6,052 nt of DNA, taken from a virus. Lineage: Duplodnaviria; Heunggongvirae; Uroviricota; Caudoviricetes. Positions 1 to 6,052 of this stretch are shown in pieces. How positions within the stretch are numbered: the first letter of the stretch is position 1; each line of letters starts with the position of its first letter. The notes under the pieces are model-generated. The model did no database searches and was not told the origin of the DNA. It worked only from the letters and a program-made list of their open reading frames with translations. Position numbers and translations under genes: made by a program. The stretch lies in IMG/VR virus record IMGVR_UViG_2651869755_000005; one strand, given 5' to 3'.

Positions 1-206
1 TGGCGGAGAGCATCAATGGTCTTTACAAAGCGGAGGTAATACACCGTAAGAGCTGGAAAAACCGTGCAGAAGTGGAACTGGCCACACTCACGTGGGTGGA
101 CTGGTATAACAATCGACGATTGCTGGAAAGGCTGGGCCATACTCCTCCGGCAGAAGCAGAAAAAGCTTATTATGCTTCCATCGGAAACGATGATCTGGCA
201 GCCTGA
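1..206 (+). CDS. IS3-family transposase OrfB, C-terminal part (5' end outside window)
   Basis: Open frame 3..203 with stop TGA at 204..206; conserved DDE-transposase C-terminal motif W-V-D-W-Y-N-x-R-R-L. Confidence 0.8.
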   Translation, partial: AESINGLYKAEVIHRKSWKNRAEVELATLTWVDWYNNRRLLERLGHTPPAEAEKAYYASIGNDDLAA

Positions 207-248
207 GTTCACAGATAAAATACTCTCCAGGAAACCCGGGGCGGTTCA
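1..248 (+). mobile_element. 3' end of an IS3-family insertion sequence (IS629-like), truncated by the window start; right inverted repeat ends at ...GGGGCGGTTCA (pos 248)
   Basis: Frame-3 translation of 3..203 gives a typical IS3-family orfB C-terminus (...ATLTWVDWYNNRRLLERLGHTPPAEAEKAYYASIGNDDLAA*). The sequence 207..248 is the reverse complement of the terminal repeat TGAACCGCCCCGGGTTTCCTGGAGAG... that I recall for IS629/IS1203-type elements. Exact IS identity is from memory, not a search. Confidence 0.8.
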
Positions 249-419
249 GCCGCAGATGAGCTTGTCCATATGACTGCGAGAATTAACCGTGGTGAGGCGA
301 TCCCTGAACCAGTAAAACAACTTCCTGTCATGGGCGGTAGACCTCTAAATCGTGCACAGGCTCTGGCGAAGATCGCAGAACTCAAAGCTAAGTTCGGACT
401 GAAAGGAGCAAGTGTATGA
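249..419 (+). pseudogene. P: 3' remnant of lambda-type replication gene P (about 56 codons), truncated upstream by the IS insertion
   Basis: Frame continuous from the IS boundary (249) to stop TGA 417..419, ending ...KAKFGLKGASV. The stop overlaps the ren start (ATGA at 416..419), the P-ren arrangement of lambda. No intact N-terminus or promoter-proximal start exists downstream of the IS end. Confidence 0.6.
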
Positions 420-706
420 CGGGCAAAGAGGCAATTATTCATTACCTGGGGACGCATAATAGCTTCTGTGCGCCGGACGTTGCCGCGCTAACAGGCGCAA
501 CAGTAACCAGCATAAATCAGGCCGCGGCTAAAATGGCACGGGCAGGTCTTCTGGTTATCGAAGGTAAGGTCTGGCGAACGGTGTATTACCGGTTTGCTAC
601 CAGGGAAGAACGGGAAGGAAAGATGAGCACGAACCTAATTTTTAAGGAGTGTCGCCAGAGTGCCGCGATGAAACGGGTATTGGCGGTATATGGAGTTAAA
701 AGATGA
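416..706 (+). CDS. ren: Ren-like protein (lambda ren homolog), 96 aa
   Basis: 96-aa ORF (MTGKEAIIHYLGTHNSFCAPDVAALTGATV...) matching the length and, as far as I recall, the sequence of lambda Ren; start overlaps the upstream stop (ATGA); position between P and ninB as in lambda. Confidence 0.8.
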   Translation: MTGKEAIIHYLGTHNSFCAPDVAALTGATVTSINQAAAKMARAGLLVIEGKVWRTVYYRFATREEREGKMSTNLIFKECRQSAAMKRVLAVYGVKR

Positions 707-731
707 CCATCTACATCACTGAGCTAATAAC

Positions 732-763
732 AGGCCTGCTGGTAATTGCAGGCCTTTTTATTT
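732..763 (+). terminator. Rho-independent terminator, tR2-like, between ren and ninB
   Basis: Perfect 8-bp GC-rich stem AGGCCTGC (732..739) / GCAGGCCT (748..755) with an 8-nt loop, followed by TTTTTATTT (755..763). Confidence 0.6.
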
Positions 764-779
764 GGGGGAGAGGGAAGTC

Positions 780-1220
780 ATGAAAAAACTAACCTTTGAA
801 ATTCGATCTCCAGCACATCAGCAAAACGCTATTCACGCGGTACAGCAAATTCTTCCAGACCCAACCAAACCAATCGTAGTAACCATTCAGGAACGCAACC
901 GCAGCTTAGACCAGAATCGAAAGCTTTGGGCTTGCCTTGGTGACGTCTCTCGTCAGGTTGAATGGCATGGTCGCTGGCTGGATGCAGAAAGCTGGAAGTG
1001 TGTGTTTACCGCAGCATTAAAGCAGCAGGATGTTGTTCCTAACCTTGCCGGGAATGGCTTTGTGGTAATAGGCCAGTCAACCAGCAGGATGCGTGTAAGC
1101 GAATTTGCGGAGCTATTAGAGCTTATACAGGCATTCGGTACAGAGCGTGGCGTTAAGTGGTCAGACGAAGCGCGACTGGCTCTCGAATGGAAAGCGCGAT
1201 GGGGAGATCGGGCTGCATGA
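780..1220 (+). CDS. ninB: NinB (Orf-family recombination mediator), 146 aa
   Basis: MKKLTFEIRSPAHQQNAIHAVQQILPDPTKP... is near-identical to lambda NinB as I recall it; strong SD (GGGGAGAGGGAAG) ahead of ATG 780. The track's upstream TTG at 762 is rejected as start. Confidence 0.9.
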   Translation: MKKLTFEIRSPAHQQNAIHAVQQILPDPTKPIVVTIQERNRSLDQNRKLWACLGDVSRQVEWHGRWLDAESWKCVFTAALKQQDVVPNLAGNGFVVIGQSTSRMRVSEFAELLELIQAFGTERGVKWSDEARLALEWKARWGDRAA

Positions 1221-1744
1221 CTATCAAATCAAATACGCCAGCACACGACAAGGACTGCTGGCAAACGCCGCTTTGGCTTTTTGATGCACTGGATATTGAG
1301 TTTGGATTCTGGCTGGATTCGGCAGCGAGCGACAAAAATGCTCTGTGCGCTCACTGGCTAACTGAGGACGACGACGCGCTCAATTCTGAGTGGGTAAGCC
1401 ACGGTGCAATCTGGAATAACCCACCGTACAGCAATATCAGGCCGTGGGTGGAAAAAGCCGCTGAGCAGTGTATACAACAGCGACAGACGGTAGTGATGCT
1501 TGTGCCAGAGGATATGTCTGTCGGATGGTTCAGCAAGGCTCTGGAGAGTGTTGACGAAGTTCGTATTATCACTGATGGACGGATTAATTTTATCGAACCA
1601 TCGACAGGGCTGGAGAAGAATGGAAACAGCAAAGGCTCCATGCTGCTGATTTGGCGACCGTTCATCAGTCCTCGACGGATGTTTACTACCGTATCCAAAG
1701 CGGCATTGATGGCGATCGGGCAGGGCGTCAGGAGGGCTGCATGA
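1217..1744 (+). CDS. Phage-type DNA N6-adenine methyltransferase (small Dam-like), 175 aa
   Basis: Catalytic motif IV N-P-P-Y within ...[11 protein letters not shown]...; size and context typical of lambdoid nin-region Dam-like methylases. ATG 1217 overlaps the ninB stop (ATGA) with a GGGGAGA SD about 9 nt upstream; upstream Met codons in the track ORF (from 1157) would overlap ninB and are rejected. Confidence 0.8.
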
Positions 1745-1917
1745 GACGACAGCGACGAAGCATCACCGACATAATCTGCGAAAACTGCAAATACCTTCCA
1801 ACGAAATGCTCCAGAAATAAACGCAAGCTAATCCCAAAAGAATCTGACGTAAAAACCTTCAATTACACAGCCCACCTGTGGGATATCCGGTGGCTAAGAT
1901 ATCGTGCGAGGAAATGA
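1741..1917 (+). CDS. ninE: NinE, 58 aa
   Basis: [29 protein letters not shown]...[19 protein letters not shown] matches lambda/DLP12 NinE as I recall it; ATG 1741 overlaps the methyltransferase stop (ATGA). Confidence 0.85.
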
Positions 1918-1919
1918 CA

Positions 1920-2261
1920 ATGGATTATTCACAGTTAAGTGATTTTGAAATTAACAGAATGGTAGGAGACATAATTTTTAAAGGCCTTTGGGCAAGTAAA
2001 CCGGAAACATCAGGGAATAACACCAACAAATGGTATTACGGAAATGCTGATACAACTTTTGAGCCATTAAATCATTTGCCTGACTACTGCAATGATCCGA
2101 GCGCTTCATGGCCGATTATTGAGAAATACAGGATTTCTATCTTAGACCAGTTAACTGAATGGTGTGTGGATGCAAAAGGCGTAAGCCCAATATTTGATAC
2201 CAGACCTCTCCGCGCCGCCATGATTGTCTTTCTCCTGATGCAGGAGGCCAATAATGCTTAG
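1920..2261 (+). CDS. Hypothetical nin-region protein, 113 aa, function unknown
   Basis: Long ORF in the same orientation; ATG 1920 preceded by GAGGAA SD at 1908..1913, 2 nt after the ninE stop. No motif I recognise ([24 protein letters not shown]...[13 protein letters not shown]...). An in-frame alternative start exists at 1914. Confidence 0.7.
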
Positions 2262-2448
2262 CCCATCTCAATCCCTTCAATACCTGAAAGAAAGCATAGA
2301 GCGGGCTTCAATGTGCACAGAGTGGATTCTATCTAGGTTTAGCGCATACAGAAGATTGCCGGTAAAGGGCATGCCAAGCAAGTCGATGCTGCATATGCAA
2401 AAGAATGCGCGCTGGAAGGTATGGCGAGAACACAGGTTATGTGGCTAA
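2254..2448 (+). CDS. Hypothetical small protein, 64 aa; N-terminus possibly NinF-like; 3' part overlaps an out-of-frame ybcO-like remnant
   Basis: ATG 2254 preceded by a strong SD (CAGGAGG, 2241..2247) and overlapping the upstream stop by 8 nt. The basic C-terminal third lies over sequence that in another frame encodes a YbcO-like C-terminus, so the 3' end may be fortuitous. The NinF resemblance of [10 protein letters not shown]... is a weak recollection. Confidence 0.5.
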
Positions 2449-2471
2449 AAGAGGGGGTTATTAAGGCGTGA
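2343..2471 (+). pseudogene. ybcO: 3' remnant of a ybcO-like (DUF1364 nuclease-like) gene lacking its 5' two-thirds
   Basis: Frame beginning after stop 2340..2342 reads ...[29 protein letters not shown], matching the C-terminus of DLP12 YbcO as I recall it. Its stop (2469..2471) overlaps the rusA GTG start, as in DLP12. No N-terminal Cys-rich YbcO portion is present upstream. Confidence 0.45.
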
Positions 2472-2830
2472 ATACCTACAGCATCACATTACCCTGGCCT
2501 CCGAGCAATAATCGCTATTACCGCCATAATCGCGGGCGCACGCACGTCAGCGCAGAGGGGCAGGCATACCGCGATAACGTCGCCCGAATCATTAAAAACG
2601 CAATGCTGGATATCGGCCTGGCTATGCCTGTGAAAATCCGCATTGAGTGCCACATGCCGGATCGCCGTCGCCGTGACCTGGATAATCTGCAAAAAGCCGC
2701 TTTTGACGCACTCACTAAAGCAGGTTTCTGGCTGGATGATGCTCAGGTCGTTGATTACCGCGTTGTGAAGATGCCTGTTACCAAAGGTGGGAGGCTGGAA
2801 CTGACCATCACCGAAATGGGGAATGAATGA
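2468..2830 (+). CDS. rusA: RusA Holliday-junction resolvase, 120 aa
   Basis: [120 protein letters not shown] matches E. coli DLP12 RusA as I recall it; GTG start at 2468 with GAGGGGG SD upstream. Confidence 0.92.
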
Positions 2831-2967
2831 TGTTTGAGTTTAATATGGCAGAACTTCTTCGCCACCGCTGGGGGCGTCTGCGCTTATATCGTTTCCCCGG
2901 TTCTGTTTTGACCGATTACCGAATACTGAAGAATTACGCCAAAACCCTGACAGGAACAGGAGTATGA
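2827..2967 (+). CDS. ylcG: YlcG-like small protein, 46 aa (not in the ORF track because under 60 aa)
   Basis: Manual translation from ATG 2827 (overlapping the rusA stop): [46 protein letters not shown], stop 2965..2967; matches DLP12 YlcG as I recall it and sits in the conserved position between rusA and Q. Confidence 0.7.
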
Positions 2968-3052
2968 AGTCAGAGATAACAATCAACTAATACTGTTTTG
3001 TTGATTTTTGCTTGTAATTGGCGTTCTGGTCTGATTTTTGTGGAGTAAGTTG

Positions 3053-3436
3053 ATGCGTGATATTCAGATGGTTCTTGAGCGTTGGGGTGCGTGGGCGGCT
3101 AATAATCATGAAGATGTGACCTGGTCGTCCATTGCCGCCGGTTTTAAGGGATTAATTCCTTCAAAAGTAAAATCTCGCCCGCAATGTTGTGACGATGACG
3201 CGATGATCATTTGCGGGTGCATGGCCCGTCTGAAAAAGAACAACAGCGATTTACACGATTTATTAGTAGATTATTATGTATGTGGTATGACATTCATGTC
3301 ACTGGCAAGTAAGCATTGCTGCTCGGATGGTTATATCGGGAAAAGGTTACAGAAGGCTGAGGGCATAATTGAAGGGATGTTAATGGCATTAGATATCCGG
3401 TTAGATATGGATATCGTTGCTAATAATTCTAATTGA
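3053..3436 (+). CDS. quuD: Q-family late-gene antiterminator (QuuD-like), 127 aa
   Basis: [31 protein letters not shown]...[16 protein letters not shown]... matches DLP12 QuuD in length and sequence as I recall it; ATG 3053 with GGAG SD at 3042..3045. Track start 3038 (TTG) rejected. Confidence 0.88.
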
Positions 3437-3454
3437 TATGCAATTGTTTACTAA

Positions 3455-3486
3455 AAGTTATTAAAAATGGGGCGTGGAAACGCCCC
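3455..3486 (-). terminator. Candidate rho-independent terminator on the - strand (likely nmpC terminator)
   Basis: Stem GGGGCG (3469..3474) / CGCCCC (3481..3486) with loop TGGAAA; on the - strand the hairpin is followed by ATTTTTAATAACTT (complement of 3455..3468). Confidence 0.5.
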
Positions 3487-3573
3487 CAAAATAAAGGGTA
3501 ATATATAACAGAAGGTTTATATAGTAAGAAGCAAGGTAGTGCTTCTAAAGGAAGTGGCTTGAGGGCTCCACTT

Positions 3574-3613
3574 ATATGTTGCGGAGGCAAAGCCTCCCGC
3601 AACATATCTTTTT
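3574..3613 (+). terminator. Strong rho-independent terminator on the + strand downstream of quuD
   Basis: About 14-bp stem ATATGTTGCGGAGG / CCTCCCGCAACATAT (one bulged C), loop CAAAG, followed by CTTTTT (3608..3613). The - strand side lacks a T-tract, so it is + strand specific. Confidence 0.6.
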
Positions 3614-3624
3614 CGTAAGTCAGA

Positions 3625-4707
3625 TTAGAACTGATAAACCAGACCTACAGCGACGATGTCGTCGGTATCAATACCAGCTGTTTTGGTAAACTTACTATCG
3701 TCAATTAAGTTGATTTTGTAATCAACAAAAGTAGACATGTTTTTATTAAAGTAGTAAGTAGCACCGACATCGACATACTTGACTAAGTCTCGGTCACCAT
3801 GAACACCAAGGTCTTTACCTTTTGACTGAAGGTAAGCAACAGATGGGCGCAGACCGAAGTCAAACTGATATTGTGCTACTGCTTCAAAGTTTTGTGCTTT
3901 GTTTGCAATATGGTTATTACCAAAAACGGTCATATTCTGAGTTTCAGAATATGTGGTAGCCAGATAGATATTGTTCGCATCATATTTCAGGCCTGCAGCC
4001 CATACTTCCGCATTTTTGCCGGAGGCATTGAATTTGCTCTTACCATAGGCGACCTGACCGTCAGTGCGATCTGATTTAGCATAGGTTGCACCCACGCCGA
4101 ATCCTTCATACTCATAAGTAGTGGAGAAACCGAAACCATCACCATTGGCTTCAGTTACGTCAGTGCGGTCATTTTTACCCTGATACTGAGCAGCAAAGTT
4201 CAGGCCATCGACCAGACCAAAGAAGTCGTTGTTACGATAAGTTGCAACACCAGTAGTGCGACCAGTCATGAACACATCTGTTTGGGTCCAGGTATCACCA
4301 CCGAATTCTGGCAGAACGTCAGTCCACGCACCGATGTCGTATGCTACACCGTAGTTACGGCCGTAATCGATGGAGCCGTAATCACCAAATTTCAGGCCTG
4401 CAAATGCAAGACGGGTTTTGTCTTTGGAAGAACCTTGAGATTCAGCACGGTTGCCTTTGAATTCATATTCCCACTGACCGAAACCAGTCAGTTGATCGTT
4501 GATTTGGGTTTCACCTTTGAAGCCAAGACGGGCATAAGTAGTATCACCATCATCTGCATCATTAGAGGAGAAGTAGTGCTTGGCATTAACTTTCCCGTAT
4601 AGATCCAGCTTGTTACTGTCTTTATTATAAATTTCAGCTGCCTGAGCAGACATCGCCATCAGTACTGATGCAGCTACAGCAGAAATTGCCACTGTTAATT
4701 TTTTCAT
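3625..4707 (-). CDS. nmpC: Outer-membrane general porin of the OmpC/OmpF/PhoE family (NmpC-like), apparently intact, with signal peptide
   Basis: Signal peptide [23 protein letters not shown] then [16 protein letters not shown]...; C-terminal ...VGLVYQF with terminal Phe typical of beta-barrel OMPs. Start ATG (complement of 4705..4707) chosen over the track's upstream Met (4767) because of the signal peptide and an AAGGG SD. Position and orientation between quuD and essD match DLP12 nmpC. Confidence 0.9.
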
Positions 4708-4990
4708 TGTACGCCCTTTTTTTGAACTATTATTAAAAAATGATGTCACTGCGCGATAAATATTCATCTAATCAATGTGATTATTTCAAGATGTAAGTTT
4801 TAGTTTCTCATTTAATTTGTGAAGTAGATCTCTATTTTTATCTGAACCTTTTCTATCTAATCCTATTCATGGCTCTTGTCTGAACAAAAATAAATCTATT
4901 AGCTAATTTATATTAATGGCACTTATTTATAAGTGCTCTATAATTCTTTAGCTTAATTTAAACAAACTAAAAATAACATCGGAAATTATT
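4708..4990 (-). promoter_or_regulatory. AT-rich upstream/5' leader region of the porin gene (promoter not mapped)
   Basis: Long AT-rich non-coding stretch upstream of the porin start, containing an 18-bp inverted repeat (4919..4936) and several TCTAT/ATCTA repeats; porin genes usually carry long regulated leaders. No -35/-10 pair is assigned with confidence. Confidence 0.4.
4919..4936. repeat. Perfect inverted repeat GCACTTAT-TT-ATAAGTGC (8-bp arms, 2-bp spacer)
   Basis: Read directly from the sequence; arms are exact reverse complements. Candidate dimeric regulator operator, about 215 bp upstream of the porin start codon. Confidence 0.5.
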
Positions 4991-5133
4991 AACTGATTAT
5001 TTGTTGAAGTTTTCTTATGTATTTGTGGTGGTGTTTTGAACACTCGGTGGCATTCTCACAAATATCATTTAGTAGTTTACGTACGTAAAAAATTGGTTAT
5101 GCTGTTAAGAGTGGTTACTTCGTCACACAGCTT

Positions 5134-5166
5134 AAACCCGCCGTCGAGCGGGTTTTTCCATTTTTT
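5134..5166 (+). terminator. Rho-independent terminator on the + strand about 130 bp upstream of essD (candidate tR'-like late terminator)
   Basis: Stem AAACCCGC (5134..5141) / GCGGGTTT (5148..5155), loop CGTCGA, followed by TTCCATTTTTT (to 5166). The - strand side has only a 3-T run. Confidence 0.65.
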
Positions 5167-5295
5167 GAGTCTCGATATTAGCTGATAACCCAATACCTGA
5201 GTTATTCACTGACTCCGAATCTGTTACGTTTCTGCCTTTATTGCGATACGTAATATCCCCTTAATTTACACCCGCTTTGTCTGCGAGGTGGGGTT

Positions 5296-5511
5296 ATGAA
5301 ATCCATGGATAAGTTAACAACGGGTGTCGCCTATGGCACCTCAGCAGGTAGTGCCGGTTACTGGTTTTTACAGCTGCTCGATAAAGTCACGCCCTCACAG
5401 TGGGCAGCAATAGGTGTGCTGGGTAGCCTGGTATTTGGCCTGCTGACGTACCTGACAAACCTTTATTTCAAGATTAAAGAAGATAAGCGCAAGGCTGCGA
5501 GAGGTGAATAA
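5296..5511 (+). CDS. essD: Holin, phage 21 S-like pinholin (EssD-like), 71 aa, with dual-start motif
   Basis: [71 protein letters not shown] resembles DLP12 EssD / S21 as I recall them; Met1-Lys2-Ser3-Met4 gives the two-start holin/antiholin arrangement; GAGGTGGGG SD upstream; two hydrophobic segments. Confidence 0.9.
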
Positions 5512-6008
5512 TGCCTCCATCATTACGAAAAGCCGTTGCTGCTGCTATTGGTGGCGGAGCAATTGCTATAGCATCAGTGTTAATCACTGGCCCAAGTGGT
5601 AACGATGGTCTGGAAGGTGTCAGCTACATACCATACAAAGATATTGTTGGTGTATGGACTGTATGTCACGGGCATACAGGAAAAGACATCATGCTCGGTA
5701 AAACGTATACCAAAGCAGAATGCAAAGCCCTCCTGAATAAAGACCTTGCCACGGTCGCCAGACAAATTAACCCGTACATCAAAGTCGATATACCGGAAAC
5801 AATGCGCGGCGCTCTTTACTCATTCGTTTACAACGTGGGTGCTGGCAATTTCAGAACATCGACGCTTCTTCGCAAAATAAACCAGGGCGATATCAAAGGC
5901 GCATGTGATCAGCTACGTCGCTGGACATATGCTGGCGGTAAGCAATGGAAAGGTCTCATGACTCGTCGTGAGATTGAGCGTGAAATCTGTTTGTGGGGTC
6001 AGCAATGA
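5511..6008 (+). CDS. rrrD: Phage lysozyme with N-terminal signal-anchor-release (SAR) domain (RrrD/R21-like), 165 aa
   Basis: N-terminal Gly/Ala-rich weakly hydrophobic segment [20 protein letters not shown] followed by a lysozyme domain (...[16 protein letters not shown]...); start overlaps the essD stop (TAATG); pairing with a pinholin is the phage 21 arrangement. Confidence 0.9.
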
Positions 6009-6052
6009 ACAGAGTAACCGCGATTATCTCCGCTCTGGTTATCTGCATCATC
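6005..6052 (+). CDS. rzpD: Rz-like spanin (i-spanin), N-terminal 16 codons only; runs off the window end
   Basis: ATG 6005 overlaps the rrrD stop (ATGA); [16 protein letters not shown] is a typical Rz N-terminal transmembrane anchor; conserved S-R-Rz gene order. Confidence 0.7.

Follow-up and report, generated by a model that had tools for sequence, protein, structure and literature searches.

The locus analysed here raises the question of how a lambdoid prophage came to carry the tail end of its replication gene P fused to the end of an insertion sequence (IS), and of what this joint implies for the prophage. The window, i.e., the whole stretch of 6,052 nucleotides that was analysed, is the entire contig LJYC01000078.1 of the draft assembly GCA_001306715.1 and starts inside the IS. 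Because the contig breaks within this element, its left side is unreadable and no more than the final 248 nt of the IS can be seen. According to a first-pass annotation, an IS629-like insertion had decapitated P and left the genes downstream intact. The features on which our evaluation of this proposal relies are collected in Table 1.

Table 1. Features of the window, with the evidence on which each assignment is based.
Feature	Position	Strand	Basis
Right-hand 248 nt of a 1310-bp IS629/IS1203-type IS (IS3 family)	1..248	+	Identity to the L015/L036 copies
Transposase orfB, 3' end, 67 codons + TGA stop, reading toward P	3..206	+	Pfam; OrfB C-terminus in L015
Right terminal inverted repeat (IRR), ending ...GGGGCGGTTCA	224..248	+	Complementarity to the left repeat (IRL); flank divergence of four copies
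Replication gene P, 3' remnant, codons 178-233 + stop	249..419	+	Identity to phage 2G7b
GCC, would-be right copy of a 3-bp target duplication if an insertion occurred here	249..251	+	Inferred only
ren, intact, 96 aa	416..706	+	Identity to WP_000145931.1 'protein ren' in L015 and to phage 2G7b
Intrinsic-terminator-like hairpin + T-run right after ren, position of lambda tR2	732..755	+	Analogy
nin region + Q	780..3436	+	All identical to phage 2G7b
ninB	780-1220	+	NinB Pfam 1.1e-54
dam-type methylase	1217-1744	+	2G7b identity
ninE	1741-1917	+	2G7b identity
ninX	1920-2261	+	2G7b identity
DUF1364 remnant	2382-2471	+	2G7b identity
rusA	2468-2830	+	2G7b identity
ylcG	2827-2967	+	2G7b identity
Q (quuD)	3053-3436	+	2G7b identity
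NmpC/OmpD-like porin gene, intact (360 aa), located after Q and before the late promoter region	3625..4707	-	
Late promoter-like site, position of pR'	4916-4944	+	Lambda analogy
Terminator-like hairpin, position of tR'	5134-5155	+	Lambda analogy
Holin essD	5296-5511	+	2G7b identity
Endolysin rrrD	5511-6008	+	2G7b identity
Rz, first 48 nt, cut by the contig end	up to 6052	+	2G7b identity

An IS629/IS1203-type end joined to the remnant of P

The 67 C-terminal codons of OrfB were read at 3-203, with the stop codon at 204-206. Their product matched the Pfam families rve_3 (8.8e-9) and rve_2 (1.1e-7), and its residues are the same as those at the OrfB C-terminus in the complete genome LC-1302-2020 (locus L015). 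The element terminates with ...CCCGGGGCGGTTCA at position 248, and the same 14 terminal bases were found in four complete copies of 1310 bp (L001, L003, L004 and L015). Complete copies begin with TGAACCGCCCC, giving the termini pattern TGAACCGCCCC...GGGGCGGTTCA. Since the flanks of the four copies diverge right after TTCA, the boundary of the IS could be placed exactly at 248/249. Besides, the IRR is complementary at 23 of 25 positions to the IRL of a full copy, TGAACCGCCCCGGGAATCCTGGAGA. Positions 1-248 match the final 248 nt of the copies in LC-1302-2020 and MMC-J-0105 (L036) at 100%, and differ by 4 mismatches (244/248 identical) from copies labelled by PGAP as 'IS3-like element IS1203 family'. 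In L015 and L036, the full copies that share the end seen in the window measure 1310 bp, and their annotation includes a programmed frameshift. Copies of this type share 96.0% identity over 1310 bp with an IS1203-labelled copy, which fits the 4-5% by which sub-types of IS629 differ, IS1203 being an isoform of IS629 (PMC3271280). The nucleotide comparison, through the terminus, the inverted repeats and the identity to IS1203-labelled copies over both the visible end and the full element, is thus in agreement with the IS629-like assignment made at first, the element being of the IS629/IS1203 type. Identical copies of the IS are frequent on E. coli plasmids.

The role of P is to load DnaB, the helicase of the host, at the O-bound origin. 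In the window, positions 249-419 correspond to nt 532-702 of P of phage 2G7b and are identical to them over the whole length (171/171). The phage gene has 702 nt and 233 codons; the break falls exactly after codon 177, in frame, and leaves 56 codons and the stop. This identity confirms that the reading frame at 249-419 is the 3' end of P, cut down to about its last 56 codons, as had been proposed, and other lambdoid phages agree with it: the segment 249-760 has 99.2-99.4% identity to phage 21, H-19B and lambda-named isolates. Within the remnant, an internal ATG at 270 opens the 49-aa ORF that is called by gene callers. The overlap with ren that had been described is also present, the ATG of ren (416-418) and the stop of P (417-419) sharing the ATGA at 416-419, and ren has its own AAGGAG 8 nt upstream. 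The 56-aa tail gave no match against Pfam, including the PF06992 family, at E <= 0.01, the fragment being too short. The P sequence of the window is a gene remnant, not a full-length P gene. As P is the DnaB helicase loader, a prophage without its codons 1-177 would be unable to replicate in the manner of lambda. The probable loss of autonomous replication that had been predicted for this prophage is therefore supported, the absence of these codons being read from the contig and the rest following from the established role of P.

The junction itself was recovered repeatedly. Four other independently assembled metagenome contigs (L008, L010, L012 and L013) contain it, identical to the base; they are 99.9-100% identical to the window over the full length and carry 53-139 nt of the IS. 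Owing to its presence in five independent assemblies, the junction is considered real. The opposite view, in which an assembler created a chimera at a repeat and the joint between IS and P is absent from the genome, draws on the fact that the window is a short draft contig beginning inside a multi-copy repeat, and on the contigs of many assemblies that break within a few bases of the same point of P. It is very unlikely, since the junction was assembled from five data sets which, judging by their contig names (an NCBI isolate, k141, k95 and two scaffolders), involved different assemblers and k-mer sizes, and since 53-248 nt of IS are attached to it in each of these five assemblies. The exact right junction was seen only in short contigs, each of which also breaks in the IS. 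It had no match in 5,426 complete E. coli genomes, in the GTDB species representatives or in the JGI metagenomes.

Contigs ending near this point of P were also observed without the IS. Partial P sequences of exactly 177 or 178 residues were found at contig ends in 136 and 32 blocks, respectively, of the assembly collection, with various immunity regions. These partials (loci L016-L035 and L040-L049) break at P nt 533-535, i.e., window 250-252, 2-3 nt from the IS joint. They are likely due to a base difference between co-resident P alleles, together with the look-up of only two lengths. A hot spot or a mosaic boundary at the IS joint was set aside, as this ascertainment and the allele difference would explain the pattern. 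In another contig (L021 4406-5100, Logan SRR30293171_395), P has a 10-nt deletion and a divergent allele exactly from nt 534, resulting in P(1-178) and a stop, followed by a 49-aa tail ORF; there, P is broken differently at the same spot.

Relatives and the origin of the joint

The prophages of the complete genomes MMC-J-0105 and LC-1302-2020 adjoin ybhC at the lambda attachment site. Both contain an IS whose last 248 nt are those of window 1-248, located at a deletion joint in O (11318-12627 in L036 for MMC-J-0105 and 9321-10630 in L015 for LC-1302-2020). In both, exo to cII are missing and no target duplication is present at the IS in O. The prophage of MMC-J-0105 consists of int, xis, two small genes including ea8.5, the IS, O without its first 54 nt, the complete P and ren, everything from beyond ea8.5 through cII being absent. 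Its IS has the same orientation as in the window and reads IRR followed by GAG at O nt 55, its left flank being ...CAGCAATG and its right flank GAGCGTAAT... This joint lies 1377 bp upstream of the joint of the window and involves the same IS end. In LC-1302-2020, the same IS is inverted; it has O, from nt 58 onward, on one side and an int gene short of about 65 codons on the other. Judging from this gene content, the closest complete relatives would already be non-inducible remnants with the IS at a deletion joint. As 72 blocks of the assembly collection contain the truncated MMC-type O', the MMC type appears as the commoner form.

The O joints of the two genomes are offset by 3 nt, with the IS in opposite orientations. 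In MMC-J-0105, IRR is followed by GAG-CGTAATG. In LC-1302-2020, IRL is followed by CGTAATG, and IRR is in addition followed by GAG-AATCAAC inside int. The two forms seem to be related by a flip of the IS together with the GAG triplet, GAG serving as microhomology to int; two independent insertions 3 nt apart may also account for the difference.

IS629-type copies recur in the replication and nin regions of unrelated lambdoid prophages, including L003 (1770-3079, CFSAN027346), L001 (4596-5905, 24AR0357), CFT073 and others. One of these copies stands by P nt ~127 at a deletion joint, another one is located in ninB with a GTAC duplication, and several split ren. In O26/O111-type strains, many copies were found between cII and O.

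With regard to the origin of the joint in the window, the fusion of the IS to the P remnant is confirmed. That an IS insertion produced it is not supported in this form; the left junction that an insertion predicts was not found, and the IS of the relatives is at a deletion joint. A simple insertion would involve one IS629-type copy entering an otherwise complete P after nt 531-534. Beyond the IS, one would then expect the first 177-178 codons of P and a GCC duplication, and the upstream region would be either complete or of the MMC type, a second IS copy being present at O. For a duplication of 3 bp, the predicted left side is ...CGTAAGGCC joined to TGAACC, and the product has 178 residues and stops on the TGA of the IS itself. 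A simple insertion is rather unlikely, although several observations are in its favor. Indeed, IS629 makes duplications of 3-4 bp (PMC3271280), illustrated by GAC in L004 and GTAC in L001, and the break in P is clean, in frame and at a codon boundary. IS629-type copies of other strains are found in ren, ninB, P and O, and the copy number of the IS is probably high in related strains, the query with the IS/O junction having 23 matching places in MMC-J-0105, presumably mostly IS copies. A precedent is a short contig with IS ends on both sides (L053 1-1612, ENA ERZ28665848 scaffold_6183). It contains 53 nt of the IRR end, GAG, truncated O, P from nt 1 to ~663 and 54 nt of the IRL end, i.e., an MMC-type prophage with a second IS629-type copy, in the same orientation, in P at ~nt 663. 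This contig proves a simple second insertion into P in the same prophage lineage and demonstrates that local re-insertion into P does occur there.

The same contig also weighs against a simple insertion at codon 178, since a comparable piece with two IS ends was recovered for the event at nt 663, whereas the left junction or its product (P1-178, TGA and IRL) was present in no contig read, the right junction being found in at least five assemblies of the same collection. Both P(1-178) and P(1-177) are present in the assembly collection, and the contigs read stop at P nt 533-535 and carry no IS there. The sole exception is L021, in which P(1-178) is followed by more P sequence, with the 10-nt deletion, and not by an IS. 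Being contig-end partials, these sequences were not counted as evidence of insertion. The P products predicted for duplications of 1, 2, 4 or 5 bp were absent from the collection in a look-up of exact sequences, which is blind to a left fragment with a single substitution. P(1-178) followed by an IS end was found in 0 of all ten contigs carrying the 265-aa truncated O. The reading covered 24 of the 32 blocks for P(1-178) and 24 of the 72 blocks for the 278-aa O', some blocks with the shortest contigs being outside it. A BLAST search with a synthetic left junction gave no one-piece match in the 5,426 complete E. coli genomes, and pattern scans for this junction gave no match in the JGI metagenomes or in the GTDB representatives.

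We therefore favour a deletion over a simple insertion, on the grounds that at least five recoveries of the right junction stand against none of the left one among the contigs read, and that a double-IS contig was found for the event at nt 663. The position of the IS at the O deletion joint in the relatives, in one of them in the orientation of the window, also makes an IS-adjacent deletion more likely. The window is thus probably the right arm of a 2G7b-like lambdoid prophage in which the joint with P originated from an IS-associated deletion, in a lineage that already had the IS at a deletion joint in O. The starting point would have been the arrangement of MMC-J-0105, with int-xis-ea8.5, the IS, and O without its first 54 nt followed by P and ren. 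The loss of 1377 bp between the right end of the IS and P nt 532 would have removed O' and P codons 1-177 (P nt 1-531) and would leave IRR followed by GCCGCAG, exactly the arrangement observed. Such a loss could have occurred in one step, through an adjacent deletion leaving the IS intact. It could also have required two steps, a second copy in the same orientation landing in P (nt 531-534), comparable to the one in L053, and recombination between the two IS copies then yielding the same product. Deletions adjacent to IS629 extend from a few bases to more than 40 kb and include a class that leaves the IS intact, as described in two studies (PMC9330008; PMC9943667), and a 3-4 bp duplication was present at only 21 of 47 IS629 sites in O157 (PMC3271280). 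In terms of geometry, a deletion starting from the MMC type brings IRR against P codon 178, which is what the window shows. Replicative inversion of the same arrangement was rejected, because according to our own derivation it would set IRL, and not IRR, beside this codon.

Some points speak against the deletion. The left flank of the IS in the strain of the window lies beyond the contig, and the junction was present in no long-read or complete genome searched. The 5.8-kb identity to the relatives does not prove a shared upstream deletion, because 2G7b, as a free phage, matches just as fully and possesses the whole early region. Given the 23 matching places in MMC-J-0105, the P gene of an otherwise complete prophage could quite possibly have received an insertion independently. 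If the deletion started from the MMC type, as preferred here, the prophage had probably ceased to be viable by the time P was affected. Going by the complete relatives, the remainder of O, the origin, and the early and immunity region (exo-cII; pL, pR, N, cI) would also be absent. Such upstream losses would render the element non-inducible irrespective of P, the nin-Q-porin-lysis arm being kept intact. The structural genes are located outside the window.

A broader history was also considered, in which one IS629-type copy trims the lineage stepwise and directionally, through local re-insertion and through deletion or flipping at microhomologies of a few bases, with the Q-porin-lysis-iss arm under selection. 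It draws on three variant joints, O nt 55, O nt 58 (with an inverted IS) and P nt 532, together with the second copy at P nt 663. We regard this history as improbable. If it were true, the lineage would be a natural time series of IS-driven prophage domestication.

The right arm and transcription from the IS end

Downstream of the joint, window 249-6052 is identical to phage 2G7b (LR595866.1) at 5804 of 5804 positions, and is also 100% identical to the prophages of the complete genomes LC-1302-2020 and MMC-J-0105. Because of the identity to the phage, the downstream genes are considered intact at the sequence level. The earlier statement that ren and the recombination, Q and lysis genes appear intact is consistent with this base-for-base match. 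The prophage remnant and the phage record thus have 5.8 kb in common without one difference. The DUF1364 remnant between ninX and rusA (2382-2471) is a pseudogene without its N-terminus according to the annotation of the identical RefSeq region; since phage 2G7b has it too, it does not point to decay of this prophage in particular. In the complete relatives, a bor/iss gene follows the lysis genes, just past the end of the window. Rfam and tRNA scans of the window returned nothing.

It had also been suggested that the outward-facing end of the IS provides promoter activity into ren and the nin genes. This suggestion was not borne out, as no sigma-70-like site passed the promoter scan of 1-900. 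The best match under relaxed conditions reached 8/12 (CTGGCA-18-AATACT at 195-224, inside the IS). A functional rewiring, in which an outward promoter of the IS or read-through from the transposase gene keeps ren and nin/Q expressed, would be compatible with the other readings of the locus and is improbable. Read-through into P'-ren would be possible, since no terminator-like site was found on the + strand between the orfB stop (206) and 732, and ren has its own Shine-Dalgarno sequence. Besides the negative scan, the hairpin at 732-755, directly 3' of ren, speaks against such rewiring. We take this hairpin, from what is known of lambda, to be the equivalent of tR2; in this position, it would stop transcripts that are not antiterminated before the nin genes. 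Moreover, if the lineage is of the MMC type, the N gene is absent and no antitermination would occur, and a literature search gave nothing specific on an outward promoter of IS629. Transcripts leaving the IS would accordingly read P'-ren and mostly end at 732-755. That read-through from the IS expresses the P tail of 49-56 residues or ren with an effect on the host is a more remote idea.

Comparison with known systems and meaning

The element resembles IS629/IS1203 in E. coli O157 and other pathotypes, with the same length of 1310 bp, the same termini and 96% identity (Rump 2011, PMC3271280). Elsewhere, IS629 likewise shows a preference for prophages, which hold 62% of the copies in O157 (PMC3271280), and has the same outcomes, i.e., truncated genes, junctions free of duplications and adjacent deletions leaving the IS intact. 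For these outcomes, Ooka 2009 and Kusumoto 2011 are taken as cited in PMC9943667 and PMC9330008. Unlike those cases, the joint between IRR and P codon 178 is present in 0 of 5,426 complete E. coli genomes, and the host lineage of the window appears commensal or extra-intestinal and not O157, with relatives from rectal swabs and iss/bor present.

The closest textbook analogue is the cryptic prophage DLP12 of K-12. Its P gene survives solely as the 3' remnant peaD (312 nt), at a deletion joint by exoD, ren is split by an IS3-family element (IS3C), and the same right arm, rusA-ylcG-quuD-nmpC-essD-rrrD-rzpD-borD, is retained. DLP12 is 90-98% identical to the window. However, the IS in ren of DLP12 is IS3 proper, whereas the IS of the window stands at the break in P; nmpC is broken by IS5 in K-12 and intact in the window; DLP12 is located at argU, whereas the relatives of the window are at the lambda attachment site; and the arm of the window still matches a phage genome on deposit at 100%. 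The prophages of MMC-J-0105 and LC-1302-2020 are closer, with the 5804-nt right arm and the IS 100% identical and the IS at a deletion joint of the replication region. They differ from the window in that their joint lies at nt 55 or 58 of O and leaves P complete and, in LC-1302-2020, by the inverted IS and the truncated int. Escherichia phage 2G7b (genus Nesevirus), which we assume to have been isolated as a viable phage, has the same sequence at 249-6052 and an uninterrupted O-P-ren, and differs by the absence of the IS, a full P of 233 codons and a full early region. Nothing usable on this phage was found in the literature.

The decay of a prophage by an IS629-type element is ordinary, already known biology, and the importance of this locus beyond its annotation is small. 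A contig that starts inside an IS displays one junction, so that an insertion and an IS-adjacent deletion are indistinguishable without the other side, which calls for caution with contigs beginning in an IS in short-read assemblies. For the prophage itself, the finding indicates that the contig belongs to what would be a non-replicating remnant, despite an arm that is base-for-base identical to a deposited phage. The variant joints in an otherwise identical prophage provide a modest, tidy example of the erosion of the replication region by an IS629-type element.
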